Shown here: in pieces, positions 16,782 to 42,879 of the stretch | Layout: each line of letters starts with the position of its first letter | Position numbering within the stretch: the first letter of the stretch is position 1 | Assembly (NCBI GenBank): GCA_963822365.1 | Contig: CAWGHM010000009.1 | Coordinates: forward strand, 338,181 to 402,180 | DNA length: 64,000 nucleotides | Origin: an uncultured Alphaproteobacteria bacterium | Lineage (GTDB): Bacteria > Pseudomonadota > Alphaproteobacteria > Rhizobiales > Rhizobiaceae | Reading direction: 5' to 3' | Program-made: the position numbers and the translations under genes | Notes under the pieces: model-generated | Told to the model about the DNA's origin: nothing | Database searches by the model: none | The model's input: the letters and a program-made list of their open reading frames with translations, nothing else

Positions 16782-16989
16782 GATCTACTCCGGAAATTTC
16801 GAGACGATGATGAACATCACGGTCCCGGCGAGAAGCGTGAGCCAGCGAATAGGTGTAGAGCACCAGCGCGAATGGCTGGAACAGCATCAGGAATCCAAGC
16901 CGCGATCAAGGCGGTGGCGAGGTTCTCCATCGGCCCGCGCCGCAGAAAGAATGGCACGTTTGGGCTTTGTGGGGGTGTGTTTTCCTGCG

Positions 16990-17950: not shown

Positions 17951-18923
17951 CGTTGTTTCACCTTGTTCAGCGCTTTGACATAGATGTTGGCGAGACCAAA
18001 GACGGCAACGAAGAGGATGATGGCAAAGGCCGAGGCCCGGCCCGTGCGCCAGCTTTCGAAGGCCTCGCGCTTCAGCGTGATGGAGGCAACCTCGGTGGTC
18101 GAGCCCGGTCCGCCACCGGTCAAAAGCACCACCATGTCGAACATCTTGAAATTTTCGATGCCCCGGAACAGCACGGCCAGCATGATGAAGGGCAGCGCCA
18201 TCGGCATGGTGATCGACCAGAACTGCCGCCAGGCCGACGCGCGGTCCACTTCGGCCGCCTCGTAGATATAATCCGGGATGGAGCGCAGACCGGCAAGGCA
18301 GATCAGCATCACATAGGGCGTCCACATCCAGGTATCGACGATGATGATGGCCCAGGGCGACAGCGTGCACGGAACCGAGCATTTCGAAGGAGGACGGCTC
18401 GATGCCGGTGAAGAAGGAATACGATGTAGTTGAACAGGCCGATCTGCGGCTGGTAGAGAAATCGCCAGAAATTGCCGACCACCGCCGGCGACAGCATCAT
18501 CGGGATGAGGATGACGGTCGTCCAGAAGGCATGGCCGCGAAACTTGCGGTCGATCAGATAGGCCAGCGCAAAGCCGATCAGCATCTGCAGAAGGATCGTC
18601 CAGAAGACGAAATGCGCAGTCGTCTGCATCGCCTGCCAGATGTCGGGATCGTTCAGAACGCGTTGGTAGTTCGAAAGCCCGACGCCTTCGATTTCGGCAT
18701 TCGGCCGGTTCGCCCGGAAATTCGTGAACGAGAGATAGACCGCCCAGATCAGCGGGAAGATATTGATGGCCAGAAGCAGCACGATCGTCGGCAGGATGAA
18801 AACCCAGGCAATCGAGCGATCGGACAGGCCGCGGACACGGTACACAAGCGGCACGGGCGTTGCCCGTACGGCCTTATCCGCGGCCTTGTCCAGAACAGTT
18901 GAATTGGTATCGGTCACGGGCAT
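17947..18923 (-). pseudogene. carbohydrate ABC transporter permease (UgpA/MalF-like); frameshift near 18320-18400
   Basis: N-terminal fragment MPVTDTNSTVLDKAADK...IFPLIWAVYLSFTNF (ORF 18309..19001) and C-terminal fragment IPDYIYEAAEVDRASAWRQFWSITMPMA (ORF 17947..18327) are in different frames. Confidence 0.75.
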
Positions 18924-19014
18924 CACCTGGCACGAAGAAAAGGCGAAAGAAGAAACGGCGCGTCGAGAAACGGCCGCCCGGCTTTCAAACCGGGCGACCA
19001 TTCCGGGAGGATGT

Positions 19015-20334
19015 CAGAGTTTCCCGTCGTCTTCGAAGACTTCCGTCCAGTCCTTGACCAGTCCGTCCAGCGCTTCCTTGGCCGTGCCCTGATCGGCGAC
19101 CACGTAGTCGTGCAGGCGCTTCTGCGTGGCCTGCAGCAGGATGGCGTAGGACGGTTCCTGCCAGAAGTCCTGGACCTGGTTCATCGCGACCAGGAAGTCG
19201 GCCGCAAAGGGCTGGCTGTCCTTGAACGATCGGATCGTTCAGCACGGCATTGTGCACGGCATAACCGCCAAGCGACCACCACTTCTTCTGAACGTCGGGC
19301 TGGGCGAACCATTTGATGTAGGCCAGCGCGCCATCCATGTTGTCGGTATTGGCAACAACCGAGATGCCCTGCCCGCCAAGCGTCGAGGCATTGGATCGTG
19401 CCCTTCGGATTGTCGAAGAAGCCGATCTTGTCGCCGCCGACATTCTCATCCTTGGCGAGGCCCGGGAAGAAGGCAAACCAGTTCATCGCCATCGCCGACC
19501 TGTCCGGATTTGAACGCGTCAAGGTCTTCGCCCATATAGGCGTCGGTATAGCCCGGCGGCGTGCAGCACTTGTAGAGTTCCTTGTATTCCTCCAGTCCCT
19601 TGACGGCCTCGTCGGAATTCACGGCGCCTTCCATGTCATACTTGCCCGGCGTCATTTCATACTTGAAACCATAGGCATAAAGCGCCGCGTGGCGCCCATG
19701 GTGATGCCTTCCGAAGCGCGCTCGGTGAAGATCGCCGCGCCATAGACCTTCTTGCCGTCGATATCGCTTGCCATTGAAGAACTTCGCGGTTTCGAGCAGT
19801 TCCGTGCCAGGTCGTCGGCGGAGCGAGATCGCGACCGGTCGTCGCCTTGAATTCGGCCTGGATTTCCGGCTTGGAGAACCAGTCCTTGCGATAGAACCAG
19901 GCATTGGCGTCGCCCATGGCCGGCAGCGCCCAGTAGTTCGGCGTGCCCTTCGGCCAGGTCGAATAGGCATTCACCGCGGCCTGTGCGAAATCGCTCATCT
20001 TGATCCCTTCCTTGTCGAAGAAATCATTGAGCTTGACGTAGTAACCGTTTTCGGCCGAGCCGCCGAGCCACTGGCTGTCGCCGATCAGCAGATCACAGAG
20101 TTTGCCGCCGGAATTGAGTTCGTTGAGGATGCGATCGGCGAAGTTCGGCCACGGCACGAATTCGAATTTCATCTCCGTGCCGGACTGCGCCGTGAAATCC
20201 TTCGACAGTTCCACAAGCGCGTTTGCCGGATCCCATGCTGCCCAGCACAGGGTGAGTTCGGCCGCCTGCGACACACCTGCCGAAAGCGTCAGCGCCGTTG
20301 TTGCTCCCAGGAGAGCCTTGGTCATTTTCCGCAT
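19015..20334 (-). pseudogene. carbohydrate ABC transporter substrate-binding protein (CUT1 family); at least 4 frameshifts
   Basis: Signal peptide MRKMTKALLGATTALTLSAGVSQA (start 20334), then SBP body scattered over ORFs 19657..20400, 19446..19970, 18985..19476. A fourth frame ends ...WTEVFEDDGKL-stop (TGA 19015-19017). Confidence 0.75.
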
Positions 20335-20682
20335 GTATTCCTCCCAGATACAGAAGCAGGCACCACGCCGGCTTCGGGAATTCCATTTTCCGCACAGCAT
20401 GGCCCCGGTTCAAAAGGGCGCAAAGCTGCGCGACTGCCATCCACCGGGGCCGCCACCAAACCTTACAATTTCACCTGAGCTCCCCGCCCTTCGCCCGACG
20501 GCCAAATCTCGCCGTGTTGAGCAATATGTTTAGTGATATTTATTTTACTCAACATGACAAGAGGCAATCGTTGCTGCACCGCAACCATGCCGCAATGGCT
20601 TGTTGAGAATGATTTCCCGGAAAAAACAAAATCAATCGACTAAACAAATAGTTCAGAGAATGGACTGTCGTGAGCATGCGCA

Positions 20683-20720
20683 AAACAAAAAAATCCCCGA
20701 ACGCGACAAGCGTTCGGGGA
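20683..20720 (-). terminator. rho-independent terminator downstream of purU (stem CCCCGAACGC / GCGTTCGGGG, then U-tract on minus strand)
   Basis: Perfect 10-bp GC-rich stem at 20695-20719. The minus-strand downstream sequence reads ATTTTTTTGTTTTG. Confidence 0.7.
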
Positions 20721-20760
20721 TTTCACAATGTCAGGCCATCGACGATGCCGAAGCGCCGGT

Positions 20761-21646: not shown

Positions 21647-21808
21647 GGTCTTTAAGTCTTTCGTTTTGGGTCTTGGCTGGCCCTTCCGGCCCAGCATCGT
21701 GGAACGGAAGCTAGCGCGACGCCGGCCCGCCCGTCCATCCGTTTCGCGACATCGGATAGCAGGAACGGGCCATGCCGTCTGTTCTCATCTGGGAACTTGG
21801 TCCGGCGC

Positions 21809-23122
21809 TCAGATATCGAGCGTCGTCTGCCGCTCCCATTCGGTAAAGTGGGAACAAAAGGTATTCCACTCGCCATGCTTGAGCTTGAGGTAGGCGGCGG
21901 AGAATTCCGTCGCCCAGCGCCGCCTGAAGCTCGGTGTCCTTGTCGTATTCGCGCAGCGCGTCGAGCAGGTTGAGCGGCAGCTTCGGCGCGTCCTTGACGG
22001 TGTGGCCGTGCTGGTACATGTCGATGTCGTAGCGCGGCCCGGGATCGGCCTGCGGTGCGGATGCCGTCGAGACCGGCCGCGATGATGATCGCCTGCAGCA
22101 GATAGGGATTGACCGCGCCGTCCGGCAGGCGCAGTTCGAAGCGGCCGGGACCCGGCACGCGGACCATGTGGGTGCGGTTGTTGCCGGTCCAGGTCACGGT
22201 GTTGGGCGCCCAGGTGGCGCCGGAGATGGTGCGCGGCGCGTTGATGCGCTTGTAGGAATTGACCGTCGGATTGGTGATCGCGGCCAGCGCCGAGGCATGC
22301 TTCATGATGCCGCCGAGGAAGGTGCGGCCCTTGGCCGACAGGCCGAGCTCGCATGCTCTTGTCGGCGAAGACGTTGATCTTGCCGTCGACTTGTCCCAGA
22401 CCGAGATATGGGCATGGCAGCCATTGCCGGTCAGGCCCTTGAAGGGCTTGGGCATGAAGGTGGCGCGCAGGCCGTGCTTCTCGGCGACCGACTTGACCAT
22501 GAACTTGAAGAAGGAGTGCTTGTCGGCGGTGGCGAGCGCGTCGTCATACTCCCAGTTCATCTCGAACTGGCCGTTCGCGTCCTCGTGGTCGTTCTGGTAG
22601 GGCTCCCAGCCGAGCTCCAGCATGTAGTCGCAGATTTCGGCGATGACGTCGTAGCGGCGCATCACCGCCTGCTGGTCGTAGCAGGGCTTCTCGGCGGTAT
22701 CGGACTCGTCGGAAATCTGCGTGCCGTCCGGCGAGATCAGGAAGAATTCGGACTCGACGCCGGTCTTGACCCGCAGGCCCTCGCCGGCGGCTTCCGCGAT
22801 CAGCCGCTTCAGCATGACGCGCGGCGCCTGTTCGACGGGCTTGTCTTCCATGACGCAGTCGGCCGCGACCCAGGCGACATCCGGCTTCCACGGCAGCTGG
22901 ATGACGCGAGTCGGCATCGGGCACGGCGAACAGGTCGGGATGGGCCGGCGTCAGGTCGAGCCAGGTGGCGAAGCCGGCAAAGCCGGCGCCGTCCTTCTGC
23001 ATGTCGGCGATCGCCTGCGCCGGCACCAGCTTGGCGCGCTGGCCACCGAACAGGTCGGTGTAGGAGATCATGAAATATTTGATGCCACGCTCCTTGGCGA
23101 AGGCGGCAAGATCGATTGTCAC
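21809..23122 (-). pseudogene. gmaS: glutamine synthetase family protein, candidate gamma-glutamylmethylamide synthetase; at least 3 frameshifts
   Basis: N-term MTIDLAAFAKERGIKYFMISYTDLFGGQRAKLVP (ORF 22544..23122). Catalytic core ...KPFKGLTGNGCHAHISVWDK...NPTVNSYKRI (ORF 21652..22917). C-term ...EFSAAYLKLKHGEWNTFCSHFTEWERQTTLDI (ORF 21809..22354) in a further frame. The GS next to NMG synthase genes implies the NMG pathway. Confidence 0.7.
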
Positions 23123-23211
23123 TGTGTTCCCCTTTGGATTATTCAGACACTTTTTCGTGGAAAGGCCGCTACCTGTCTTGGGAGATCAGGCAACGGCCAG
23201 ATTGTGCTTGG

Positions 23212-24545
23212 TCAGAAGCCTCCCTTGCCCGGAATCCAGCTCGTGCCGGCCAGCGGCACCTGCGCCATGGCGGCGGCCTCGATGGTCAGCGCGCACGAGA
23301 TCTTCCGGCTCGAGATTGTGCACGTGGTTCTTGCCGCAGGCGCGCGCGATGGTCTGCGCTTCCAGCGTCATCACCTTGAGATAGTTGGCAAGCCGGCGTC
23401 CGGCCGCGACCGGATCGAGGCGCTTCGGCAAGCTCCGGGTCCTGCGTGGTGATGCCGGCCGGGTCCCTGCCCTCGTGCCAGTCGTCATAGGCGCCGGCCG
23501 TGGTGCCGAGCTCGTTGTACTCGGCTTCCCAGCGCGGATCGTTGTCGCCGAGCGCAACCAGCGCCGCCGTGCCGATCGAGACCGCGTCGGCGCCGAGCGC
23601 CAGCGCCTTGGCGACATCGGCGCCGTTGCGGATGCCGCCCGAGACGATGAGCTGCACCTTGCGGTGCATGCCGAGATCCTGCAGCGCCTGCACGGCCGGG
23701 CGGATGCAGGCGAGCGTCGGCAGGCCGACATGCTCGATGAACACTTCCTGCGTCGCCGCCGTGCCGCCCTGCATGCCGTCGAGCACGACGACGTCGGCGC
23801 CGGCCTTCACCGCCAGCGCGGTGTCGTAATAGGGCCGCGCGCCGCCGACCTTGACGTAGATCGGCTTTTCCCAGTCGGTGATCTCGCGCAGTTCCAGGAT
23901 CTTGATTTCGAGATCGTCCGGGCCGGTCCAGTCGGGATGGCGGCAGGCCGAGCGCTGGTCGATGCCCTTGGGCAGGGTGCGCATCTCGGCGACGCGGTCG
24001 GAAATCTTCTGGCCGAGCAGCATGCCGCCGCCGCCGGGCTTGGCGCCCTGGCCGACCACGATCTCGATGGCGTCGGCGCGGCGCAGATCGTCGCGGGTTC
24101 ATGCCGTAGCGCGACGGCAGATACTGGTAGACGAGCGTCTGCGAATGGCCGCGCTCCTCCTCGCGTCATGCCGCCGTCGCCGGTGGTGGTCGAGGTGCCG
24201 GCGAGCGTGGCGCCGCGGCCGAGCGCTTCCTTGGCCGGGCCCGACAGCGAGCCGAAGCTCATGCCGGCGATGGTGATCGGGATCTTCAGCTCGATCGGCT
24301 TCTTGGCAAAGCGCGTGCCGAGCACGACGCTGGTGTCGCATTTCTCGCGGTAGCCTTCGAGCGGATAGCGCGAGATCGAGGCGCCGAGGAACAGCAGGTC
24401 GTCGAAATGCGGCACCTTGCGCTTGGCGCCGCCGCCGCGGATGTCGTAGATGCCGGTCGCCGCCGCGCGGCGGATTTCCGACAGCGTGTAGTCGTCGAAG
24501 GTCGCGGACTTGCGCGGCGTGGTGCGGCGGGTTCTGGTAGGTCAT
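23212..24545 (-). pseudogene. mgsC: N-methylglutamate synthase subunit C (glutamate synthase FMN-binding domain, GltB domain-2-like); at least 4 frameshifts
   Basis: Start MTYQNPP (24545). MPHFDDLLFLGASISRYPLEGYREKCDTSVVLG (ORF 23807..24415). FMN/Fe-S domain GQGAKPGGGG...VKVGGARPYYD...IVSGGIRNGADVAKALALGADAVSIGTAALVALG (ORF 23286..24059). C-term ...AMAQVPLAGTSWIPGKGGF-stop (TGA 23212-23214) in another frame. Confidence 0.7.
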
Positions 24546-24557
24546 GGCTGTCCCGCC

Positions 24558-25249
24558 TCAATACGCGTCGGCGTTGTCGATGTTGAAATTGTAGAGCTTG
24601 CGGGCCGAGCCGTAGCGCGTGAACTCTTCCGGCTTCACGTCGGTGACGCCGGCCTTGTCGAGAAGTCCGGCAAGCAGCTCGAGATGCTCGGGCCGCATCT
24701 CCTTCTCGATGCAGTCGGCGCCGAGGCTCTTGACCGCGCCGCGCACGAACAGCTTGGCCTCGTAGATGCGAATCGCCGAGCGCATCGCCGGCATCGCCCA
24801 GCACGACGAGATTGCCCGACTGCGCCATGAAGGCCGACATGTGGCCGATATTGCCCTGCACGACGATGTCGATGCCCTTCATCGAGATGCCGCAGCGCGA
24901 CGAGGCATTGCCCTCGATGACCAGCAGGCCGCCGCGACCGGTGGCGCCGGCATACTGGCTGGCATCGCCCTTCGATGACGACGGTGCCCGACATCATGTT
25001 TTCGGCGACGCCCGGTCCGGCAGAGCCATGCACGGTGATCGTGCCGCCGTCGTTCATGCCGCCGCAATAATAGCCGACGCTGCCGCGCACATCGACGGTG
25101 ACCGGCTGCGTCGATGCCGACGGCGACGGCGTGGCTGCCGCGCGGGTTGACGACCTCGAAGGCCGTCTCATTGGCGCCGGCCGGACAATGGTGTGCAGCG
25201 CGCTGTTGAGTTCGCGCAGCGGCGTGGTGGCAAGATCGAAGGTACGCAT
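24558..25249 (-). pseudogene. mgsB: N-methylglutamate synthase subunit B (glutamate synthase GXGXXG C-terminal-domain-like); at least 4 frameshifts
   Basis: Fragments MRTFDLATTPLRELNSALH, VTVDVRGSVGYYCGGMNDGGTITVHGSAGPGVAENMMSGTVVIEG, MKGIDIVVQGNIGHMSAFMAQSGNLVVLGDAGDALGDS and YEAKLFVRGAVKSLGADCIEKEM lie in three minus frames. Confidence 0.7.
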
Positions 25250-25289
25250 CGCTTCCAGACTTTCTTGTCTTAGACTGACATTCACGTTC

Positions 25290-26196
25290 AGGCGGCCTTC
25301 TCATGCTCCCAGAAATAGACGGTGGCCGGCTCCGGCTCCCAGACCCGCGCATTCTCGATGCCCGGCAGGTTGACGAGCGCGCGGTATTCGGAGCCGAAGG
25401 CGACATAGTGGTCGGTCTCGGCCATGACGGCCGGCTTGCAGGCGATCGGATCGCGCACGACGCCGAAGCCGGATCTTGGTGCCGACGACGAAGGTGAAGA
25501 AGCCGTCGAGATCGTCGAGCGCGCCGGTCAGCGCCTGCGCCGAGATCCTTGCCCTTGGCCATCTCGGCGGTCAGATAGGCGGCGGCGACTTCCGAGTCGT
25601 TCTCGGTCTCGAAGGTCATGCCTTCGCGCTTCAGTTCGCGGCGCAGGTTGTTGTGGTTGGACAGCGAGCCATTGTGCACGAGGCACTGGTCGGCGCCGGT
25701 CGAGAACGGATGCGCGCCGAGCGTGGTGACGGCCGATTCGGTCGCCATGCGGGTGTGGCCGATGCCGTGCGTGCCGCCCATCTCGCGGATCGCCGAACCG
25801 GGCGACCACATCCTTCGGCAGGCCGACTTCCTTGTAGATCTCGACGCTGTCGCCCGAGCCCATGACCCGAATGTCGGGGCGCTCCTGCGCCAGCTTGTCG
25901 CGCACGGCCGAAGCCTGTGCCGTGGCCGTCTCGATGACCGCATGCGAGCTTTTCAGCTCGACGGTCACGCTGGCGTCGACAGGCTTCAAAAGCGCTTCCA
26001 GCCCTGCAAAATCCGTCGCCGGCTTGGCCGACTGAACCGTGAGTTTTGCACGACCATCGGAGGGTGCTCCGTAAATCGCAATGCCGGCGCTATCCGGCCC
26101 ACGGTCCGTCATGATGACCAACATATCGGACAGCATGGCGCCCAATTGCGGCTCCAGGCTCTTGTCCTTCAAAAATAATCCGACAATTCCGCACAT
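25290..26196 (-). pseudogene. mgsA: N-methylglutamate synthase subunit A (class-II glutamine amidotransferase, GltB domain-1-like); at least 3 frameshifts
   Basis: Start MCGIVGLFLKD (Cys2 nucleophile; ATG 26196). Middle LVHNGSLSNHNNLRRELKREGMTFETENDSEV (ORF 24879..25943). C-term ...VYFWEHEKAA-stop (TGA 25290-25292) in a third frame. Confidence 0.7.
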
Positions 26197-26354
26197 GGGC
26201 AAAATCCTTCATTGCAACGATGAAAGATCGATAGCAGCTGTTGCACCGCATTTCAACTCTGAAGAAACTTATTTTCTTCTAAGGCAATATTTTGTGATGT
26301 GACGGCAACGTGTGTCTTCGTTGCGCGAAATAGCGGAAAATGCTATATGACTAA

Positions 26355-26618
<264 letters not shown>

Positions 26619-26641
26619 GACGATCCGATCGAGGTCAGTTC

Positions 26642-27064
26642 ATGTTTTACATTGACACTTCAGTTCTTGTGGCCGCATTGACGCACGAGACCAGAACGGT
26701 GAGCATGCAACAATGGCTGGCAGAACAAAGTGCTAATCAGTTGGCGACCAGCGACTGGACGATCACGGAGTTCTCATCAGCGCTCTCGCTAAAAATGCGC
26801 ACAGGCCAAGTGCAACTGCAGGGGAGAAATCGGTCGCTGACTGCATTTCATCAGCTCGTTTCGGAATCCTTTATACTCTTGAGCATCTCGGCTCTCCATT
26901 TTCGTGCGGCTGCACGGCTGGTCGACCATTATTCGCTGAACCTGCGATCCGGCGACGCGCTGCATCTGGCTGTAGCGATGGAACATGGCGCCACTCTGTG
27001 CACGCTTGATCAAAGACTGGCTGCGGCCGGCCCGGAACTTGGCGCCGAAACATTACTTTTATAG
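26642..27064 (+). CDS. vapC: type II toxin VapC (PIN domain ribonuclease)
   Basis: ORF begins MFYIDTSVLVAALTHE (PIN acidic residue in the DTS motif). Conserved D in LHLAVAMEHGATLCTLD. SD GAGG 7 nt upstream of ATG 26642. Confidence 0.75.
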   Translation: MFYIDTSVLVAALTHETRTVSMQQWLAEQSANQLATSDWTITEFSSALSLKMRTGQVQLQGRNRSLTAFHQLVSESFILLSISALHFRAAARLVDHYSLNLRSGDALHLAVAMEHGATLCTLDQRLAAAGPELGAETLLL

Positions 27065-27082
27065 GCAGCGCATCCTATCCGC

Positions 27083-27778
27083 CTACATCCCCTGCTTCTG
27101 CGGATAGGAAATGATCGAGAGATAGCGGATCGGCAGCTTCACCAGTTCTTCCGGTCCATGGCGGGCGTCGGCGTCGAAGAACAGGCTGTCGCCGGGCTGC
27201 ATGGTGAAAAGGCGATCGCCATGGCGATAGACCACCTCGCCTTCCAGCATGTAGAGAAACTCCATGCCTTCATGCTGAAACGCCGGAAACGTATCGGAAT
27301 TGGCGCTGAGTGTAATCAAATAGGGCTCGACGACGACCCCGGCCGTGTTGTTGTCGATATGACCGAGCAGGTTGTACTGATGACCGGCCCGCGTCCCGCG
27401 CCGCTCGAGCTCCACCCCCTCGCCGGCTTTCACGAAGACGGCATTGCGCGGTTCCTCGTAGCGCCGGAAAAACGCCGTGACCGGAACGCCAAGCGCCCGT
27501 GACAGCGACTGCAGAGTGGTCAGCGATGGAGAGATATTGCCGTTCTCGATTTTCGACAGCATGCCGAGCGAAATGCCGGTGGCGGTTGCCAGATCGGTGA
27601 CGGTGATGCCGAGCTTTTTGCGGAAGGCCCGCACCTCATGGCCGATGGCGATTTCGAGATTGTTTTCCTTCGGTTCGCGCAGGGCATGCGGGTCCTGAAG
27701 GAAGGCTGCCTTCAATGCCGGTCGTTCATCGTCGGTCGTGCGGCCAATGTCGATCTCTTTCGCCTTGCTTTTCGCCAT
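27083..27778 (-). CDS. XRE family transcriptional regulator with C-terminal cupin domain
   Basis: 231-aa ORF. HTH LGITVTDLATATGISLGMLSKIENG. Cupin-like C-terminus (YLITLSANSDTFPAFQHEGMEFLYMLEGE). Confidence 0.8.
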   Translation of the reverse strand: MAKSKAKEIDIGRTTDDERPALKAAFLQDPHALREPKENNLEIAIGHEVRAFRKKLGITVTDLATATGISLGMLSKIENGNISPSLTTLQSLSRALGVPVTAFFRRYEEPRNAVFVKAGEGVELERRGTRAGHQYNLLGHIDNNTAGVVVEPYLITLSANSDTFPAFQHEGMEFLYMLEGEVVYRHGDRLFTMQPGDSLFFDADARHGPEELVKLPIRYLSIISYPQKQGM

Positions 27779-27866
27779 GCCAGCCGCGCCCTTTCTGATG
27801 TCCAGCCGGTCAGAGCCTATCCTGAGAGTGAAATTTTCTCAACCCGGAAGAAATTATACACATTTG

Positions 27867-28835
27867 CTAAATGCGCGCGCCCAGCCGGTGACTGCCGGGC
27901 GCCTCACCGAAGGCGGCGCGATAGCTGCGCGAAAAATGCCCGGCACTGGAAAAGCCGGTTGCGAAGGCGATTTCGGAGATCGAAAGCGGGCTCTGCTGCA
28001 GGAGACGCCGCGCATGGTCGAGCCGGATCTTCCTATATTCGAGAAGGAAGGAGGATTGCATGAGGCCGGCAAACAGCCGGTCGAGATGCCGTGGCGAAAC
28101 ACCCGCCAAAGCCGCCATGGCCTGCCGGTCGAGCGGCGCCTCGATCGTCGCCTCCATCTTCTCCAGCACGGTCAGAAGCCCCGGATGGTTGACACCGTAG
28201 CGCTCCGCCAGCGACCCGCGCTGCGGAGCGCCCGATGCCTCGACATGGGTGTGCAGATACCAGTCGCTGACCCTCCGGGCGAAATCCGACCCCATGCGTT
28301 CGGTAATCAGCGCGTGCATCATATCAAGCGGCGCGACGCCGCCGCCGCAGGTGATGCGATTGCCATCAAGCACATAGCGCGCCTGTCGCGGAGCAAGATC
28401 CGGAAATGCCTCCATCAAGGCGGGAGCATGCTGCCAGTGAATGGTGAAGTCCCGATCTTCGAGCAGGCCAGCCGCAGCCATCAGATAGGGGCCCCCGGAA
28501 ATGCCGCCGATGCGCACGCCGTCACGGGCAAGCTGGCGCAGACAGGCAAGAACGCCGGGCGCATCCCAATCGACGGGCGTGCCCCCGGCACAAACAAACA
28601 CCATGTCGAGACCGGTGCCGCGACCGGGCAAGGGATCGACCGGAACCGGAACGCCTGAGGAGGACAGGGACATGGCCCCCTCGGGACCATGGTTCGACAA
28701 TATATAGATGTCGCGTCCGGCCAGGAGATTGGCGGCCCGCAGCGGTTCTGTTGCAGACGCATAGGACATCAGCGCAAAACCCGGCACGAGGAGGAAACCG
28801 ATCTTCTGGGTGTTTCTGCGGTCTTCAGTGGCCAT
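27867..28835 (-). CDS. GlxA family transcriptional regulator (DJ-1/PfpI domain + AraC-type HTH)
   Basis: 322-aa ORF. N-terminal DJ-1/PfpI-like KIGFLLVPGFALMSYASATEPLRAAN. C-terminal AraC HTH ...ISEIAFATGFSSAGHFSRSYRAAFG. Divergent from mgdA. Confidence 0.8.
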   Translation of the reverse strand: MATEDRRNTQKIGFLLVPGFALMSYASATEPLRAANLLAGRDIYILSNHGPEGAMSLSSSGVPVPVDPLPGRGTGLDMVFVCAGGTPVDWDAPGVLACLRQLARDGVRIGGISGGPYLMAAAGLLEDRDFTIHWQHAPALMEAFPDLAPRQARYVLDGNRITCGGGVAPLDMMHALITERMGSDFARRVSDWYLHTHVEASGAPQRGSLAERYGVNHPGLLTVLEKMEATIEAPLDRQAMAALAGVSPRHLDRLFAGLMQSSFLLEYRKIRLDHARRLLQQSPLSISEIAFATGFSSAGHFSRSYRAAFGEAPGSHRLGARI

Positions 28836-28925
28836 GTCCTAATCATGCATCAGAAGGTCTCTTATCTGCAAGAGCCGATTGCGGATCCTGTCATGATCAC
28901 CACCAGCTTTCACGGTGAATCGATC

Positions 28926-30180
28926 ATGCGCTACTCCGCCTTTTCCGTCTTTCTCAATGCGCTTCGCGGCAACAAGAACTGGCAGCCGGCCTGGCGCAGC
29001 CCGGTTCCGAAGAGCCACTATGACGTGGTTATCGTCGGCGGCGGCGGGCATGGACTGGCGACGGCCTATTACCTCGCCAAGGAATTCGGCATCACCAATG
29101 TCGCGGTGCTGGAAAAGGGCTATATCGGCTCCGGCAATGTCGGCCGCAACACGACGATCATCCGCTCCAACTACCTGCTGCCGGGCAACAACCCGTTCTA
29201 CGAACTGTCGATGAAGCTCTGGGAGGGGCTGGAGCAGGATTTCAACTTCAACGCCATGGTCTCCCAGCGCGGCGTGCTCAACCTCTACCACTCCGACGCC
29301 CAGCGCGACGCCTATGCCCGGCGCGGCAATGCCATGCGGCTGCATGGCGTCGATGCCGAACTGCTGGATCGCGAGCCGTGCGCGCCAGATGCTGCCCTTC
29401 CTCGATTTCGACAATGCCCGCTTCCCGATCCAGGGCGGGCTGCATGCAGAAGCGCGGCGGCACGGTGCGCCACGATGCGGTGGCCTGGGGCTATGCCCGC
29501 GGCGCCGACAGGCGCGGCGTCGACATCATCCAGAATTGCGAAGTCACCGGCATCCGCCGCGAAAACGGCCGCGTGACCGGCGTCGAGACCAGCCAGGGCT
29601 TCATCGGCTGCGACAAGCTGGCGCTGGCGGTCGCCGGCAATTCCATCGCCGTTGCCGACATGGCCGATCTGCAGCTGCCGATCGAAAGCCATGTGCTGCA
29701 GGCCTTCGTCTCCGAGGGCCTGAAGCCGTTCATCGACACCGTCGTCACCTTTGGCGCCGGGCATTTCTACATCTCGCAGTCCGACAAGGGCGGCCTGGTC
29801 TTCGGCGGCGATATCGACGGCTACAATTCCTACGCCCAGCGCGGCAATCTGCGCGACGGTCGAGGACGTGGCCGAGGCCGGCATGGCGATGATCCCGGCG
29901 CTGTCGCGCGTTCGCGTGCTGCGCTCCTGGGGCGGCGTCATGGACATGACCATGGACGGCTCGCCGATCATCGACCACACCCCGATCGACAATCTCTATC
30001 TCAACGCCGGCTGGTGCTACGGCGGCTTCAAGGCGACGCCGGCCTCCGGCTTCTGCTTCGCCCATCTGATCGCCAAGAACGAGCCGCATGAGACCGCGAC
30101 GCGCCTTCCGGCTCGATCGCTTCGCGCGCGGCCGCATGATCGACGAAAAGGGCGTCGGCGCCCAGCCAAACCTGCACTGA
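28926..30180 (+). pseudogene. mgdA: N-methylglutamate dehydrogenase subunit A (sarcosine oxidase beta-subunit-like, FAD); about 4 frameshifts
   Basis: MRYSAFSVFLNALRGNKNWQPAWRSPVPKSHYDVVIVGGGGHGLATAYYLAKEFG... in frame to ~29375. Then MLPFLDFDNARFPIQGGLH, QKRGGTVRHDAVAWGYARGAD...GHFYISQSDKGGLVFGGDIDGYNSYAQRGNL, TVEDVAEAGMAMIPALSRVRVL...GWCYGGFKATPASGFCFAHLIAKNEPHETA and RFARGRMIDEKGVGAQPNLH-stop (TGA 30178) are in alternating frames. Confidence 0.75.
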
Positions 30181-30190
30181 GGACCTGATC

Positions 30191-30438
30191 ATGGCCAGCC
30201 TGATCGCCTGCCCCCATTGCGGCCCGCGCCCCAAGGAAGAATTCACCGTTCGCGGCGATGCCGGCATGACACGTCCGGCACCGGATGCCGGCGAAGACGC
30301 CTGGCATTCGACTATGTCTATCTGCGCGACAATCCGCGCGGCCGGCATCGGGAACATTGGCACCACACCTCCGGCTGCCGGCGCTGGCTGGTCGTCGAGC
30401 GCGATACGATGACCCACGCCGTCTGTCCCGCGTGTTGA
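30191..30438 (+). pseudogene. mgdB: N-methylglutamate dehydrogenase subunit B (sarcosine oxidase delta-subunit-like); one frameshift at ~30307
   Basis: MASLIACPHCGPRPKEEFTVRGDAGMTRPAPDAGEDAW in one frame. FDYVYLRDNPRGRHREHWHHTSGCRRWLVVERDTMTHAVCPAC-stop in the next frame. Confidence 0.7.
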
Positions 30439-30463
30439 CGCCGCAGGTCTGGGAGAGCCGCGC

Positions 30464-33443
30464 ATGAGTTCGTTTCGCCTGCCAGGCGGTGGTCGCATCG
30501 ACCGCAGCACGCCGCTCGCTTTCACCTTCGACGGCAAGCCGATGCAGGGTTTTGCCGGCGATACGCTCGCCTCGGCACTGCTTGCCAATGGCCGTCAGCT
30601 GGTTGGCCGCTCGCTTCAAGTATCACCGCCCGCGCGGCATCCTGACGGCCGGCGCCGCCGAGCCGAATGCGCTGCTGACGATCGGCGCAGGCGGGCGCAC
30701 CGAGCCCAACACCCGCGCCACCGTCGCCGAACTGTACGACGGGCCTCGATGGCCAGCAGCCAGAACCGCTGGCCGTCGCTCGATTTCGATCATCGGCGCG
30801 GTCAACAGCCTGCTCGTCGCCCTTCCTCGGCGCCGGCTTCTACTACAAGACCTTCATGTGGCCGGCGGCCTTCTGGGAGAAGCTCTACGAGCCGATCATC
30901 CGCAAGGCCGCCGGTCTCGGCCGGGCCACCTATGAGGCCGATCCGGACACCTATGAAAAATGCTGGGCGCATTGCGACCTGCTGGTGATCGGCGCCGGCC
31001 CGGCGGGTCTTGCTGCCGCGCTGACAGCCGGCCGCGCCGGCGCACGCGTCATCCTCGCCGACGAGGGCTTCGAGCCCGGCGGTTCGCTGCTGTCGGAAAC
31101 GGCACAGATCGGACGGACAACCCGGCGGAACTGCTTGCCCGGCACGATTGCGGAACTGGAGAGCCTGCCGAATGTCCGCGTGATGACACGCACCACGATG
31201 TTCGGCTGGTATGACGGCAATGTCTTCGGCGCGCGTCGAGCGTGTGCAGAAGCATGTCGGCGCAGTCCGATCCCAACCGCCCGATCGAACGGCTTTGGCG
31301 GATCGCGGCCAAGCAGGCGATCCTCGCCACCGGCGCGGAAGAGCGGCCGATGGTGTTTGGCGGCAACGACATTCCCGGCGTGATGATGTCGGGCGCCATG
31401 CGCAGCTATCTCAACCGCTATGCCGTCGCGCCCGGCCGGCAGACCGTCATCTTCACCACCAACGCAGTCCGGCTATCGGACCGCAGCCGATCTCGAGGCA
31501 CAGGGTCTCGATGTCGCGGCCATCGTCGACAGCCGCACGGACGCGCCGACGCGATGGGCCGGCAAAGCCCGCATCATTGCCGGCGGGGTCGTGTCAGGAT
31601 GCGCGCGGCGGCAAGATGCTGTCGGGTGTCACCATTGCCAGCCCCGGCTCTTCAGAGACGATCAAGGCCGATGCGCTGGCCATGTCCGGCGGCTGGAGCC
31701 CGATCATTCACCTCGCCTGCCATCGCGGCGGCGGCCTGTCTGGTCGGATGCGAAGTCTGCCTTCCTCGCCCCCGAACGCCTGGATGGCCTGACGCTCGCC
31801 GGCTGCTGTCGCAGGCCTCGAAACGCTGGCGGCCTGCCTTGCCGATGGCGCGCGGAAAAGCCCGCCAGATCGTCGCGGACCTTGGCTTCGGCAATGCAAG
31901 CGCCGCCTTTGCATCGGCCGCCGAGGCGAAGCCTCGAGCGACGTCCAGGCCGACTCTGGTTCGTGCGCGGCGTCGAAAGGCAAGGCCTTCGTCGACTACC
32001 AGAACGACGTGCACCTCAAGGATCTCGTCTCGGCGGTCAGGGAAGGCTATGGCCATGTCGAGCTTGCCAAGCGCTACACCACCAACGGCATGGCGACCGA
32101 CCAGGGCAAGCTGTCCAACATCAACGCCATCGGCATTCTGGCCGAAGCACGCAAGCGTCTCGCCGGCCGATGTCGGCACCACGACCTTCCGGCCCTTCTA
32201 CACGCCGCGTCTCCTTCGGCGCGCTCGCCGGCACGTCGAGAGGCAAACATTTCCAGCCGGTGCGCAAATCGCCGCTGCATGACTGGGCGAAGAAACACGG
32301 CGCGATCTTTGTCGAAACCGGCCTCTGGTACCGCTCCTCCTGGTTCCCGCAGGGCTGGCGAAACGACCTGGCGCGAAAGCGTCGATCGCGAGGTTCTGAA
32401 TGTCCGCGAGAATGCCGGCATCTGCGACGTCTCGACGCTCGGCAAGATCGAGATCTTCGGCAAGGACGCGGCCGAATTCCTGAACCGCATCTATTGCAAC
32501 GCCTTTCTGAAGCTGCCGGTCGGCAAGGCGCGCTACGGGTTGATGCTGCGCGAAGACGGCATGATCTATGACGACGGCACCACCAGCCGGCTGAGTGAGG
32601 ATCATTTCTTCATGACGACCACGACGGCCTATGCCGCCGGCGTCATGACCCATCTGGAATTCTGCGCCCAGGCGCTCTGGCCCGATCTCGATGTCCAGTT
32701 TGCCTCCTCGACCGACCAGTGGGCGCAGATGGCAGTGGCCGGTCCGAAATCGCGCGCCGATTCTGCAGAAGCTCGTCGACGAGGACATTTCGGACGCAGC
32801 CTTCCCGTTCCTCGGCGCAAAGGAAGTATCGCTCTGCGGCGGCAAGCTGTCCGGCCGGCTGTTCCGCATCTCGTTTTCCGGCGAACTGGCCTATGAGCTG
32901 GCAGTGCCGGCAGGCTACGGTGAAGCCATCGCCGATGCCATCATGGAAGCCGGCAGCGAGCATGGCATCTGCCCTTACGGCGTCGAGGCGCTGGGCGTGA
33001 TGCGCATCGAGAAGGGCCATGTCACCCATTCCGAAATCAACGGAACCGTCACTCCTGCCGATCTCGGTTTTGCCAAGATGGTTTCCGCCACAAAGCCGGA
33101 TTTCATCGGCAAGGCCATGCTGTCGCGCGAAGGCATGACGGATCCGGACCGGCTCTCGCTGGTCGGTGTCAGGCCGATCGATCCCGCGACAACATTCAAG
33201 ACCGGTTCGCATATTCTGGCAGACGGCGCGACACCCTCACTTGAAAACGATCAGGGCTACATATCGTCCAGCTGCTATTCGCCGAACATCGGGTCGACGA
33301 TCGGGCTTGCCCTGGTCAAGCGCGGACCGCTAAGGCACGGCGAGCATGTTACCGTCTGGAATGACCTGAAAAACGAATATTGCAAGGCCGTGCTGTGCAG
33401 CCCGGTCTTCTTCGATCCGGAAAATGGAAAGCTCCATGGCTGA
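30464..33443 (+). pseudogene. mgdC: N-methylglutamate dehydrogenase subunit C (sarcosine oxidase alpha-subunit-like, ~990 aa); about 10 frameshifts
   Basis: Start MSSFRLPGGGRIDRSTPLAFTFDGKPMQGFAGDTLASALLANGRQLVGRS. Then KYHRPRGILTAGAAEPNALLTIGAGGRTEPNTRATVAELYDG, dinucleotide-binding CDLLVIGAGPAGLAAALTAGRAGARVILADEG, aminomethyltransferase-like middle (VLNVRENAGICDVSTLGKIEIFGKDAAEFLNRIYCNAFLKLPVGKARYGLMLREDGMIYDDGTT). C-terminal 250 aa ...GVEALGVMRIEKGHVTHSEINGTVTP...DPENGKLHG-stop are intact (ORF 32691..33443). Confidence 0.7.
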
Positions 33444-34008
33444 ATTTTCGCTTGTTCACCGCCCCGCCCTTTCCGGCGCAAAATCGGGATCTTTCGGCGC
33501 AACAGCGACTGACGGAAGGATTGTGCTCGAAGCGCTGCCGGAAGGACATGTGCTGCAGGTTCTCGCGTCCGGGGGAACGGGCGACCTTTCGACTATTGTT
33601 GCCTCTCTCGGCGATGGTTCGGACCATGCGGTCCGCGCTCTCGGCCCCGGCCAATGGTTCCTTGTCGGCGATGCAGGGCTCGCGCATTCGGATGTGACAG
33701 ACAAACAGGCGATCCTGTCCGGCAAGGCGTCGGTCGCCGACCAGTCCCATGGACGCGTGCGGATCGGCATCAGCGGCGCCGCTGTCGAGGCCGTGCTTGC
33801 CAAGGGCACGGCCGTCGACCTGCACCGGTCGCAGTTTCCGGTGGGCCGCTCGGCCATGACGCTGATCGGTCATATCTCGGCGCTGATCACGCGCACCGGC
33901 GAGACCCGCTTCGAAATCCTGGTTCTGCGGGGTTTTGCCGAGAGCCTCTGGGACGAACTGATCGAAATGAGCCTCGAATTCGGCGTCGATGCGCGAACCG
34001 GGTTCTGA
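33436..34008 (+). CDS. mgdD: N-methylglutamate dehydrogenase subunit D (sarcosine oxidase gamma-subunit-like)
   Basis: Intact ORF MAEFSLVHRPALSGAKSGSFGATATDGRIVLEALPEGHVLQVLASG... Start ATG 33436 overlaps the mgdC stop (33441-33443). Confidence 0.75.
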   Translation: MAEFSLVHRPALSGAKSGSFGATATDGRIVLEALPEGHVLQVLASGGTGDLSTIVASLGDGSDHAVRALGPGQWFLVGDAGLAHSDVTDKQAILSGKASVADQSHGRVRIGISGAAVEAVLAKGTAVDLHRSQFPVGRSAMTLIGHISALITRTGETRFEILVLRGFAESLWDELIEMSLEFGVDARTGF

Positions 34009-34741: not shown

Positions 34742-34804
34742 GGGCCGTCCGAAACCGGCAGGTGGCGGGATCTCCGCCACTTGGTCCGCTGGCCAGGTCT
34801 GGTT

Positions 34805-35591
34805 TTACTTCGGCTGGGACGGGGTAAAGTTCGCCACCAGCGCATGCCGCTCGCCGGGGTAGATCAGCCGGACATGGGTGATGTAGGCACCATTGCTCCA
34901 TGTGCGCCGCTCGACGGTGAGACAGGCCGTTCCGATGGCAATTCCCAGAGCCGCCGCAATCGTTTCATCGGCTGCAACAGCGCGGATCGTGTGTTCGGCC
35001 GCACTCCAGGGCACCCTGTTCAGCAGCCAGGGGCCCGGTGCCAGTTCCTCGAAGGTCTCTGACACGGCATCCGGCACGGCGGCCAGATTGATCAGGCGCT
35101 GCTCGACGCAAAATGGCCGCCCACCCGCAAGATGGACGCAGTCGATATCGAGGACAGCGGCTGCAGCCTCCAGCCCCAGACGACGCCGATCCTCCGCCGT
35201 GCTGCGGCGCTTGCTCTTCGCCAAAAGCCTGTAATCATAGGCAAGACCGAGGGACTGGACCTCAAGCTTGATATCGCGGATTTCAAGCACCGCCGACTGT
35301 GCCCGCGGCTGAGTCACATAGCTGCCGGACTTGCGCCGCCGCTCGATCAGGCCGGTCTTTGCCAGTTGCGTCAGCGCCTTGTTCACGGTCATCCGTGAAC
35401 ATTTGTACTGCTCGGCAAGATCGACCTCGAAAGGTATGCGAAACCCTGGGTGCCCATTCGCCCGTCAGGATCCGGTCCTCGATGTCGCCGAGGATGCGCT
35501 GGTGCAGCGAAAGCTCGCCTGCGCCATCGGCTGGAACCGCTCCGCTTTCCAACCCTGCATCACTCTCTGCATAACTGCGCGATTTTACCAA
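34805..35591 (-). pseudogene. hutC: histidine utilization repressor (GntR family, UTRA effector domain); one frameshift at ~35448
   Basis: N-term ...ELSLHQRILGDIEDRILTGEWAP (ORF 35283..35591). Shifts at cccAgggtttcg to ...FRIPFEVDLAEQYKCSRMTVNKALTQLAKTGLIERRRKSGSYV plus UTRA domain (ORF 34805..35392). Confidence 0.75.
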
Positions 35592-35683
35592 GGTCCCACT
35601 TCCATAGGCCGGTCGAGATGCCGGTCGTTATCGTTCTTGCCGAGATCATTCGTCAGGGACACCCCTTATCGGAATGCGATCGG

Positions 35684-37027
35684 TCAGGCCAGAAGCGCAT
35701 GCATGACGGCACGAAACCGGGACGCGATCTGGGCACGCTTTGCATGCTGTCCGTTTTCGACCTGCTTGACGCCGGCGACCCAGACACAATCCGGCTTTGT
35801 CCCATTGGCAAACAGCCAGGAATCGAGCACGGCATCATCTGTCAGTTTGCCGATATCCGGCTGCCGCAGGCTGACGAAATCGGCAGGTTTGCCGACGCTG
35901 AGGCCGACCTCCGAGCCGAGCGCCCTGCCGCCGCCGTCAACGGAACCGTCAAACAATGCCCGTCCGGTCGATTGCCCCGGCGCCGTCAGGACATTGCGCG
36001 AGCGATGCAGCAGGCGCTGCGAATATTCGAGCTGGCGCAACTCGTCTGGAATGCCGATCAGGATGTTGGAATCGGAACCGATCCCGAACCTGCCACCGGC
36101 CTCGCCAAAGACGACTGCGTTGAACGTGCCGTCACCAAGATTGGCTTCCGTCACCGGGCAGAGCCCGGCAATTGCGCCGGCCTTCGCCATCCGGCGCGTT
36201 TCATCATCGGTCATGTGGGTTGCATGGATCAGGCACCAGCGATCGTCTATCCCTGCATTGTCGAGCAGCCATTCAACCGGCCGCGCTCCCGACCAGGCCA
36301 CGCAATCCTCAACTTCCCTGACCTGTTCGGCCACATGAATATGGACCGGCCCGTCCTTTGCCATCGCCACCACCGCGGAAAGCTCGTCCGGCGTTACCGC
36401 CCGCAGGCTGTGGGGCGCGACACCGACATTGCCGCCCGGCAGACCGCCAACAGCGCGATGGCAGCCTTCGAGCAGGCGCGCGAAGCTTTGTGGATCATTG
36501 ATGAACCGGCGCTGCCCCTCGTTCGGCTCCGCCCCGCCAAAGGTCGAATGGGCATAGAAGACGGGAAGCAGGGTGAGGCCGATGCCGGTCTGCGCGGCCG
36601 CAGCGGCGATCCGCTGCGCCATCTCGGAAATATCGGCATAGGGCCGTCCGTCAATATCGTGGTGCAGATAGTGAAATTCACCGACGCGGGAAAATCCGGC
36701 TTCCAGCATCTCCATGTAGAGCTGGGCAGCAACGGCCTCGACATGATCCGGCGTCATCGACAGCGCAAACCGGTACATGACATTGCGCCAGCTCCAGAAG
36801 CTGTCAGCGCCAGGGCCGCGCATTTCGGCAAGTCCCGCCATGCCGCGCTGGAACGCGTGGCTGTGCAGATTGGGCATGCCCGGAACGAGGATATCGTGGC
36901 GCTCGTCGCCTGAGGTCGCCTCGACGCCCGCCTCAACGGAAACGATCCGGCCCGACTGCGCCTTTAGCCGCACATTCTTTTGCCAGCCCGCCGGCGTGAG
37001 TACCGATTTCCCATGAATGCTGGTCAA
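35684..37027 (-). CDS. hutF: formimidoylglutamate deiminase
   Basis: 447-aa intact ORF. Amidohydrolase metal-binding motifs (NLHSHAFQRG; HIHVAEQ). Confidence 0.85.
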   Translation of the reverse strand: MTSIHGKSVLTPAGWQKNVRLKAQSGRIVSVEAGVEATSGDERHDILVPGMPNLHSHAFQRGMAGLAEMRGPGADSFWSWRNVMYRFALSMTPDHVEAVAAQLYMEMLEAGFSRVGEFHYLHHDIDGRPYADISEMAQRIAAAAAQTGIGLTLLPVFYAHSTFGGAEPNEGQRRFINDPQSFARLLEGCHRAVGGLPGGNVGVAPHSLRAVTPDELSAVVAMAKDGPVHIHVAEQVREVEDCVAWSGARPVEWLLDNAGIDDRWCLIHATHMTDDETRRMAKAGAIAGLCPVTEANLGDGTFNAVVFGEAGGRFGIGSDSNILIGIPDELRQLEYSQRLLHRSRNVLTAPGQSTGRALFDGSVDGGGRALGSEVGLSVGKPADFVSLRQPDIGKLTDDAVLDSWLFANGTKPDCVWVAGVKQVENGQHAKRAQIASRFRAVMHALLA

Positions 37028-37128
37028 GGTCTCATCCCTTCCTGACTGTCGTCACATCAAAAAAACACTTGCGCTGATTTTCTATATGTCTATACATAAT
37101 ATCATGAAAAGGAAAGGCGCAAAAATCG

Positions 37129-38383: not shown

Positions 38384-38432
38384 CATTGAAAGACGCGTGA
38401 GCCCTGCTCCGCGCATTGGTGAGGACTTTGCA

Positions 38433-40805: not shown

Positions 40806-40809
<4 letters not shown>
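39982..40809 (+). pseudogene. hutG: N-formylglutamate amidohydrolase; frameshifts, 3' end uncertain (40740 or 40809)
   Basis: SD GGAGG then ATG 39982, MN then a 1-nt deletion (cc vs ccc). Continues [51 protein letters not shown]... Later fragments [26 protein letters not shown] and ...[34 protein letters not shown] in other frames. Confidence 0.65.
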
Positions 40810-42483
<1,674 letters not shown>

Positions 42484-42486
42484 GGC

Positions 42487-42879
42487 TTAGATCAGCGGAT
42501 ATTTCGGAAGACCGGGATACCGAAGAACTGCATCATCGACAGTGATCAATGGGACCCCTTCGATGATTGCCTGAGCAATCAGGATGCGATCAAAGGGGTC
42601 TTTGTGAAGCAACGGCAAACCTGCAATCGCAATTGCGTGTTCGCTGTTTATGGGAAGCTCGGTATATCCGTTTTCGAGAAGGCGATACCGCAGGACGAAG
42701 GGATCGGTGCGAAAATCGTCCCGCCCTAGACTGTGTTTTGTCGCCGTTTCCCAGATGCTCGCAGGACTGAAATTGAGCTCGTTGTTCGTATCTTCAATGA
42801 GCTTTCTGATGCCGGTGGACAGCATATCGAGATCGCCCGCCGCCCAGATCAGAATATGTGTATCGAGCAGCAGTCTCAT
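42487..42879 (-). CDS. vapC: type II toxin VapC (PIN domain)
   Basis: 130-aa [19 protein letters not shown]...[21 protein letters not shown] with conserved PIN acidic residues. ATGA overlap with the antitoxin. Confidence 0.8.

Follow-up and report, generated by a model that had tools for sequence, protein, structure and literature searches.

Can a gene cluster whose enzymatic genes are, with a single exception, broken by frameshifts in the deposited sequence still encode a working pathway, and which pathway would that be? The question is raised by a 12.5-kb locus in a 64,000-nucleotide stretch of DNA (the window) from an uncultured alphaproteobacterium of the family Rhizobiaceae (contig CAWGHM010000009.1, positions 338,181 to 402,180; assembly GCA_963822365.1), which is high in GC (~62%), of the rhizobial type, and carries candidates for the three enzyme systems of the N-methylglutamate (NMG) route of methylamine utilization, i.e., the gamma-glutamylmethylamide synthetase GmaS, the N-methylglutamate synthase MgsABC and the N-methylglutamate dehydrogenase MgdABCD. 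A first-pass annotation, made from the letters of the stretch, had described this route as complete, as interrupted by a toxin-antitoxin (TA) pair and two regulators, and as frameshifted in all enzymatic genes except mgdD. We located the genes by six-frame open reading frames (ORFs) and by tblastn with proteins from a related plasmid, and made the domain and family calls with Pfam and NCBIfam/TIGRFAM models on frame-repaired proteins; every gene named in that annotation lies where it had been placed, and its gene content and coordinates are correct. From these sequence comparisons, we consider it highly probable that the locus is a standard NMG cluster with its own regulators and a lineage-specific TA insertion, that its frameshifts are artefactual and that the encoded pathway is intact.

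The repaired glutamine synthetase (GS)-like protein scores 684.6 bits against the family model TIGR03105, above the cutoff of 469.6, versus 298 bits against the GlnA model TIGR00653, which is under the cutoff of 429. Its closest solved structure is GmaS of Rhodovulum sp. 12E13 (RhGmaS; PDB 7CQL, 650 bits, E=1.6e-194, 65% identity over 431 residues), followed by 9QUR, a 'glutamate--methylamine ligase' (343 bits), whereas the structures of true glutamine synthetases reach at most 232 bits. By these comparisons the protein groups with GmaS and not with the true glutamine synthetases. Residue columns, read from the alignment to 7CQL in the numbering of the structure paper (PMC7948447), agree: the catalytic Asp177, Glu186 and Arg312, the ATP-binding Tyr174, Gln175, Trp189 and Tyr191 and, at the methylamine site, Lys30′ of RhGmaS are kept, i.e., all the residues cited for these three functions are shared. 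The ammonium-binding Asp50′ of GS is replaced by Ala48′ and the glutamate of the GS Glu-flap by Trp300, in both cases as in RhGmaS. The window copy differs from RhGmaS in that it is readable only after removing eight extra bases and adding one. The same annotation had set GmaS against GlnA/GlnT; as regards GlnT, this contrast is false because the rhizobial GlnT ('GSIII') is itself of the GmaS family, and 7CQL was deposited under the name 'Type III glutamate--ammonia ligase'.

The genes adjoining gmaS show the MgsABC architecture, with a class-II amidotransferase, a GXGXG subunit and a flavin mononucleotide (FMN)-binding/Glu_synthase subunit encoded by three separate genes in the order A-B-C, which is identical to that of the mgsABC-gmaS operon described from Paracoccus aminophilus. 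The four genes on the plus strand, ordered beta-delta-alpha-gamma, are recognised by the subfamily models for soxB, soxD, soxA and soxG, those for soxB and soxA scoring above, and those for soxD and soxG slightly below, their cutoffs. In subunit makeup and in the Pfam/TIGRFAM subfamily models matched, they resemble the heterotetrameric sarcosine oxidases (Stenotrophomonas 2GAG, Corynebacterium 1VRQ and the rhizobial glyA-linked soxBDAG), but the beta subunit is only ~52–58% identical to those, and the rhizobial sarcosine-oxidase genes lie in a neighborhood of glyA and a betaine transporter (e.g., the soxB paralogue of R. indicum, 52% identical to MgdA, which adjoins glyA and a glycine-betaine transporter). 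The homologues of MgdA form an upper identity band of 72–92%, which includes the gmaS-linked copies of Rhizobium and Aminobacter (cluster-linked homologues stand at 74–92%), and a lower band of at most 60%, comprising the crystallised sarcosine oxidases and the rhizobial glyA-linked paralogue. In the window, in all close relatives and in Aminobacter, mgdABCD is linked to gmaS and mgsABC and not to glyA, betaine or sarcosine genes. Elsewhere in the window, a distant homologue of soxB of the DAO family of flavin adenine dinucleotide-dependent oxidoreductases (7254–8474, plus strand; 27–33% identical to SoxB) does not constitute a second sox operon.

The GmaS scores, together with a linkage of the Mgs and Mgd genes like that in the NMG clusters of P. 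aminophilus, Aminobacter and Ruegeria pomeroyi, argue for the gamma-glutamylmethylamide/NMG route that the first-pass annotation had named. That annotation had also pointed to what would speak for glutamate/sarcosine metabolism instead: the GS-like protein stands apart from true glutamine synthetases, the sox-like genes differ from the glyA-linked kind, and a folD neighborhood, which it had counted on the same side, is wrongly taken as evidence against the NMG route, since purU and folD provide the downstream one-carbon (C1) oxidation steps. A locus unconnected with methylamine, in which a third glutamine synthetase (GSIII), a split glutamate synthase and a heterotetrameric sarcosine oxidase serve ammonium, glutamate or sarcosine metabolism, is what the RefSeq names in relatives would imply ('type III glutamate--ammonia ligase', 'glutamate synthase family protein', 'sarcosine oxidase subunit family protein'), and the beta subunit does score 447 bits on the sarcosine oxidase 2GAG. 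We hold such a locus to be extremely unlikely, given that the GS-like protein lacks both the ammonium-binding Asp and the Glu-flap Glu, that the biochemically characterised GmaS to which it is 65% identical bears the same 'type III' name, that rhizobia carry a separate soxBDAG paralogue beside glyA and the betaine transporter, that the Aminobacter cluster is embedded among methylotrophy genes, and that R. pomeroyi needs gmaS-mgsABC and mgdABCD to grow on methylated amines, which also induce them.

What tempers the assignment of MgdABCD is a soxBDAG-like set on a Phaeobacter plasmid, which is 74% identical and not linked to gmaS. Because of this set, identity alone is not a clean classifier of Mgd, and the choice of NMG dehydrogenase over sarcosine oxidase rests on linkage and identity bands taken together. 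The same set, standing apart from gmaS, also leaves some room for NMG machinery with a substrate range wider than, or different from, monomethylamine, in which other small primary amines would enter via GmaS, or N-methylated compounds such as homarine via Mgd. In line with such a range, a 2026 paper reports a role of Mgd in the catabolism of homarine, as well as a tmaR-mgd linkage that persists in strains without the upstream methylamine genes, and tmm, tdm and dmm genes are missing beside the window cluster, unlike in Rhizobium sp. T136. Nevertheless, gmaS, mgsABC, mgdABCD and purU are all tightly linked here, which is the methylamine-tied arrangement in every organism studied, and a different or broader substrate range is unlikely.

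The arrangement recurs widely. Matches to the 12.5-kb locus come from 250 plasmid records, mostly of Rhizobium and Sinorhizobium, and in 49 of these extend over 80% or more of its length; the genes on them are annotated as glnT, FMN-binding glutamate synthase family, GXGXG, amidotransferase, GlxA regulator and sarcosine oxidase subunits. In the rhizobial glnT-glxBCD-glxA-soxBDAG locus (pT136c of Rhizobium sp. T136 and plasmids of R. phaseoli and R. etli), the genes, their orientation, the divergent glxA/soxB pair and the purU after glnT are all as in the window, at a DNA identity of 81–83% over 81–85% of the 12.5 kb; the genes of these plasmid relatives are intact, unlike those in the window text. 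The T136 locus differs in having the XRE-family regulator gene after soxG, as against between glxA and mgsA in the window, in being without the TA pair, and in featuring folD and dimethylamine-monooxygenase-type (dmm) genes beside purU, while the window PurU is 90% identical at the amino-acid level to the product of the glnT-adjoining purU of T136. Beyond the rhizobia, plasmid pUSP1 of Aminobacter sp. MSH1 carries XRE-mgsA-mgsB-mgsC-glnT-soxBDAG amid genes for malate-CoA ligase, glycerate dehydrogenase and phosphoenolpyruvate carboxylase and glyA, surroundings that constitute a serine-cycle methylotrophy island. The NMG clusters of Aminobacter MSH1, P. aminophilus pAMI6 (mgsABC-gmaS, mgdABCD) and R. 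pomeroyi (gmaS-mgsABC, tmaR, mgdABCD) comprise the same three enzyme systems as the window, and the order mgsA-B-C-gmaS is common to the window and the methylotroph and marine NMG clusters. In Aminobacter, whose MgdA is 74% identical to that of the window, all cluster genes are co-oriented and lie among serine-cycle genes, for carbon assimilation; in contrast, the position of the window cluster between a sugar-type ATP-binding cassette (ABC) transporter and a hut operon suggests use of methylamine as a nitrogen source. According to a genus-level paper on Aminobacter, these genes make up the NMG pathway, with purU plus folD as the branch that oxidizes methylene-tetrahydrofolate (CH2=THF); in papers on P. 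aminophilus, SAR11 and R. pomeroyi, glnT, glxBCD and soxBDAG are equated with gmaS, mgsABC and mgdABCD. The locus is, then, the standard and already well-known alphaproteobacterial NMG cluster, with nothing new in the pathway. As an observation on the spread of mgs genes at large, a 41-nt stretch of mgsC (23911–23951) is matched exactly in 21 genomes in a search of 185,579 species-representative genomes, including those of Rhizobium, Paracoccus, Xanthobacter, Methylopila, Sphingobium and Reyranella, which suggests either very strong constraint or horizontal spread of these genes.

We then turn to the frameshifts. Seven homologous contigs (L002–L006, L028 and L029) served for comparison, of which L003 is from Rhizobium herbae, L028 is contig ctg111017_5x_l of ENA ERZ26165887 and L029 stems from the public run ERR12037365. 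Exact-match look-ups with the XRE and Phd proteins of the window retrieved relatives only, and those with SoxG and GlxA retrieved no record. Indels were scored against the intact orthologous contig L002 (88–91% identical) and, for the hut genes, against an Agrobacterium plasmid. Relative to L002, the window contains 70 one-base insertions over 16.4–37.8 kb, and ~58 insertions inside genes compare with ~3 deletions (Table 1). Measured against intact orthologues, it is literally true that all enzymatic genes except mgdD are frameshifted. The frameshifts do stand in the sequence text, but they are neither specific to the locus nor natural in character, since extra bases also break purU (one), three ABC-transporter genes at 16.7–20 kb (two to six each) and hutC, hutI, hutH, hutG and hutU (35.4–42.2 kb), with hutF and hutD spared. 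The insertions fall into blocks at 16.7–25.8, 29.38–32.76 and 37.7–42.2 kb, the edges of which lie inside genes: no insertion falls within the first 450 nt of mgdA, nor in the final 680 nt of mgdC or the initial 400 nt of mgsA.

Alignment-guided removal of the extra bases yields full-length ORFs for gmaS, mgsA, mgsB, mgsC, mgdA, mgdB, mgdC and purU with no internal stops, i.e., ~10 kb of repaired coding sequence without a nonsense codon. The inserted base equals its neighbor in 12 of the 70 cases, where a random base would do so in 47% and replication slippage far more often. After repair, the ratio of nonsynonymous to synonymous divergence (Ka/Ks) is 0.003–0.12 across genes, with purU at 0.003 (Ka 0.001 versus L002) and the transporter genes at 0.03–0.055, the same as between intact relatives; the amino-acid differences are conservative and not clustered at the indel sites. 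Two metagenome contigs of the same lineage share the TA insertion, namely L028, with an identity of 95% overall and >99% in 25.8–29 kb, and L029 (99.3%). Both are free of every window insertion in the regions they cover: GmaS, MgsC, MgsB and MgsA of L028 are intact, L029 lacks the extra base at 25791/2, and the orthologues of mgsC (442 aa) are intact in L002–L006 as well as in L028. Contig L028, at 5x coverage, shows errors of the opposite kind: its purU, XRE and glxA genes are interrupted by surplus bases within homopolymer runs, and its genes for the NMG enzymes remain whole. A 95-nt stretch of the window that runs across two insertion sites finds no exact counterpart among the 185,579 species-representative genomes, and a 41-nt stretch between these sites does so in 21. 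The mixed lesions, slippage, nonsense codons and relaxed selection of natural pseudogenes are not seen in the window, and we reject natural decay because the 5–21 frameshifts per gene come without nonsense codons, radical missense changes or comparable deletions. Thus, the frameshifts would most likely be an artefact of sequence production or assembly and not a sign of gene decay.

Several observations sit uneasily with an artefact. The contigs without the insertions come from close relatives and not from the same strain; the insertion signature (non-homopolymer, neighbor-avoiding, with almost no deletions or substitutions, and blockwise) matches no nameable sequencing-platform fingerprint; and gmaS, mgsC and mgsB have a Ka of ~0.05 versus every relative, as against 0.002–0.02 among the relatives themselves. 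Since the excess replacements in these three genes are conservative and evenly spread, they represent natural allelic divergence rather than noise. The segment at 21.75–25.8 kb (gmaS, mgsC, mgsB and part of mgsA) is ~10% divergent from L028 and L029, with flanks at 3% or less, and its sharp right boundary (~25.8 kb) coincides with the right edge of the first insertion block (~25.79 kb). This fits either homologous replacement or a chimeric assembly in which a high-quality part was joined to lower-quality sequence of a slightly different strain. As to the origin of the extra bases, a collapsed two-strain consensus that kept both alleles of single-nucleotide polymorphisms (SNPs) is not supported, with the insertion-flanking columns polymorphic in 24 of 48 cases versus an average of 51%, and with the allele test confounded by gap placement. 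A GC-dependent failure of polishing is rejected, as insertion density is independent of the GC content of the gene, and a codon-phase bias fares no better: the distribution of insertions over the three phases (30/15/13) has a mild between-codon excess that fits neither a uniform nor a wobble-SNP model.

If the frameshifts were genuine, the NMG cluster and its neighbors would be pseudogenes in a decaying genome that has lost methylamine use. The extra bases do stand in the sequence as given and the rise of Ka in gmaS, mgsC and mgsB is lineage-specific, as such decay would have it; yet lesions that are nearly all insertions and seldom copy the neighboring base, 2–21 frameshifts per gene with no nonsense codon in ~10 kb, Ka/Ks values that, for purU and the transporter genes, are no higher than those of intact orthologues, conservative replacements, blocks that disregard gene boundaries and insertion-free contigs of 95–99% identity together render it very unlikely. 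That the ~60 extra bases are genuinely present in the DNA of the living strain, with the genes expressed through recoding, editing or bypass, is barely conceivable. If true, it would call for a means of correction that is not known from bacteria, since every lesion is +1 and avoids homopolymers and the underlying ORFs are perfectly preserved.

Returning to the cluster as artefactually frameshifted but otherwise intact, the interruption by a TA pair and two regulators described in the first-pass annotation holds for the TA pair and not for the regulators. The TA region (26294–27081) is without a counterpart in L002–L006, where the spacer between the XRE gene and mgsA is ~175 bp, and is found in L028 and L029, each with a 140-aa toxin gene called. 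It has the features of type II TA systems with a Phd/YefM antitoxin and a PIN/VapC toxin, in that the antitoxin comes first, the PIN toxin follows after a 24-nt gap and both score above the Pfam cutoffs; compared to known Phd-PIN modules it has nothing unusual, and it is limited to the lineage of the window, L028 and L029. The pair is a small lineage-specific insertion between the stop codon of the XRE gene and the intact mgsA promoter region that disrupts no gene and leaves the conserved region upstream of mgsA untouched. The two regulators, on the other hand, are integral and conserved parts of the cluster, and probably its own regulators, because both glxA and the XRE-cupin gene accompany it in relatives.

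The glxA gene is divergent from, and upstream of, soxB in all relatives examined. Its product, with a helix-turn-helix (HTH) domain of the AraC type (PF12833) at the C-terminus (residues 240–317), has GbdR as its best NCBIfam match (246 bits, below the cutoff of 480), GbdR being the choline/betaine regulator of Pseudomonas, which controls a sox operon. In R. pomeroyi, the AraC-type regulator TmaR lies upstream of mgdABCD, and the window glxA, divergent from mgdA, is similarly placed directly upstream of the mgd operon. The GlxA-family protein is a probable activator of the cluster, going by its analogy to TmaR and GbdR. In the closest relatives, the gene for the XRE-cupin protein occupies the same place, flanked by glxA and mgsA, and in Aminobacter it lies upstream of mgsA (79% identical), besides its position in T136 noted above. 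It thus travels with mgsABC beyond a single family. Five contigs with ~10% DNA divergence encode a 100% identical protein (Ka 0.002, Ks 0.48), which is under extreme purifying selection and more conserved than the accompanying enzymes; its best NCBIfam match is PuuR (58 bits, far under the cutoff of 211), the repressor of another gamma-glutamylation pathway. We found no paper characterising this XRE-cupin regulator. A perfect palindrome, GAAGAAA-N5-TTTCTTC, occurs once in the window, in a stretch upstream of mgsA that is conserved in L002–L004 and spared by the TA insertion, and we tentatively raise the possibility, somewhat short of an even chance, that the XRE-cupin protein is a dedicated sensor or repressor of the mgs-gmaS operon acting at this palindrome alongside a TmaR-like activator. 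A shared operator in the glxA-mgdA spacer was rejected, as the palindrome is present only upstream of mgsA.

The features of the locus and the indels of each gene are collected in Table 1. The distance between the two enzymatic halves, previously put at ~2.7 kb, measures 2.73 kb from the start of mgsA to the start of mgdA. The cluster is flanked on one side by the sugar-type ABC transporter (SBP_bac_1, two permeases and a MalK-like ATPase; 16700–20400) and on the other by a complete histidine-utilisation cluster (hutC, hutF, hutI, hutH, hutG, hutU and hutD; 34800–43800). In the spacer between gmaS and purU (21647–21808), there is a near-invariant block of ~95 nt with two variable positions (21686–21766, minus strand), common to the window, L002, L003, L004, L006 and L028, in which the flanking genes are 9–14% divergent. 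A riboswitch in this spacer was rejected, with no Rfam match at E<=1 and a fold z-score of -1.6 versus shuffled sequences, and the block may serve purU as a leader or as a site of protein binding. Downstream of purU, a GC-rich hairpin followed by a U-run (20686–20738, minus strand) gives a weak match to the Rfam family NsiR1 (26.5 bits, E=0.16, short of the gathering score) and is most likely an intrinsic terminator only.

Table 1. Features of the NMG locus in the window, with the extra and missing bases of the frameshifted genes.
Feature	Position	Strand	Model, structure or sequence feature	Indels
purU, formyl-tetrahydrofolate deformylase	21646→20761	−	directly 3′ of gmaS; C1-oxidation exit step	1 extra base at 21377
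gmaS (glnT; 'type III glutamate--ammonia ligase'), gamma-glutamylmethylamide synthetase	23122→21809	−	GTG start; TIGR03105, 7CQL	extra at 21912, 22043, 22057, 22350, 22391-2, 22907; 1 missing after 22035 (6 insertion events)
mgsC (glxD), FMN-binding glutamate-synthase-domain subunit of N-methylglutamate synthase	24545→23216	−	PF01645 Glu_synthase, E=9e-88	extra at 23294, 23426, 24090, 24163, 24528 (5 insertion events)
mgsB (glxC), GXGXG-domain subunit	25249→24560	−	PF01493 GXGXG; alternative GTG start at 25285	extra at 24767, 24968, 25109, 25181-2 (4 insertion events)
mgsA (glxB), class-II (N-terminal Cys) glutamine-amidotransferase-like subunit	26196→25288	−	PF13522 + PF13537; MCGIVG start	extra at 25474, 25539, 25791 (3 insertion events)
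Inverted repeat GAAGAAA-N5-TTTCTTC, candidate operator	26261–26279	none	perfect 7-bp arms	
Phd/YefM-family antitoxin	26376–26618	+	PF02604, 40.8 bits (cutoff 29.8)	
PIN-domain (VapC-type) toxin, 140 aa from ATG at 26643	26643–27064	+	PF01850, 60.9 bits	
XRE-HTH + cupin regulator (PuuR-like)	27778→27083	−	HTH_3 + Cupin_2	intact
GlxA-family (DJ-1/PfpI + AraC HTH) regulator	28835→27867	−	PF01965 + PF12833	intact
mgdA (soxB-like), beta subunit of N-methylglutamate dehydrogenase	28926–30180	+	TIGR01373, 737 bits	extra at 29380-1, 29443, 29852, 30094; 1 missing after 29374 (4 insertion events)
mgdB (soxD-like), delta subunit	30191–30467	+	TIGR01374, 114.3 bits (cutoff 116.5)	extra at 30310-1, 30433, 30458 (3 insertion events)
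mgdC (soxA-like), alpha subunit, folate-binding GcvT-like C-terminal half	30464–33443	+	TIGR01372, 1458 bits	21 frame-breaking insertions within 30614–32759, none later; 2 missing bases
mgdD (soxG-like), gamma subunit	33424–34008	+	PF04268; TIGR01375, 137.6 bits (cutoff 143.95)	intact

Because the frameshifts most likely arose in sequence production or assembly, the pathway is to be regarded as intact. Going by the characterised homologues, GmaS would convert methylamine, glutamate and ATP to gamma-glutamylmethylamide, from which MgsABC would form N-methylglutamate; MgdABCD would then oxidise the latter to glutamate, with transfer of the methyl carbon to tetrahydrofolate. PurU, together with FolD encoded elsewhere, would take the methyl-derived carbon to formate, and the net outcome would be that the amine nitrogen becomes available for assimilation. 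In Rhizobiaceae, the NMG pathway typically serves growth with methylamine as the source of nitrogen.

The practical consequence is a warning: the central 25 kb of the window carry a dense, blockwise insertion artefact, because of which an annotation pipeline would call ~15 genes pseudogenes, and 'frameshifted' or 'pseudogene' findings from this window are to be discounted. Biologically, the cluster is of small novelty, being widespread on rhizobial plasmids and chromids, with a role in methylamine use that is established in related bacteria.

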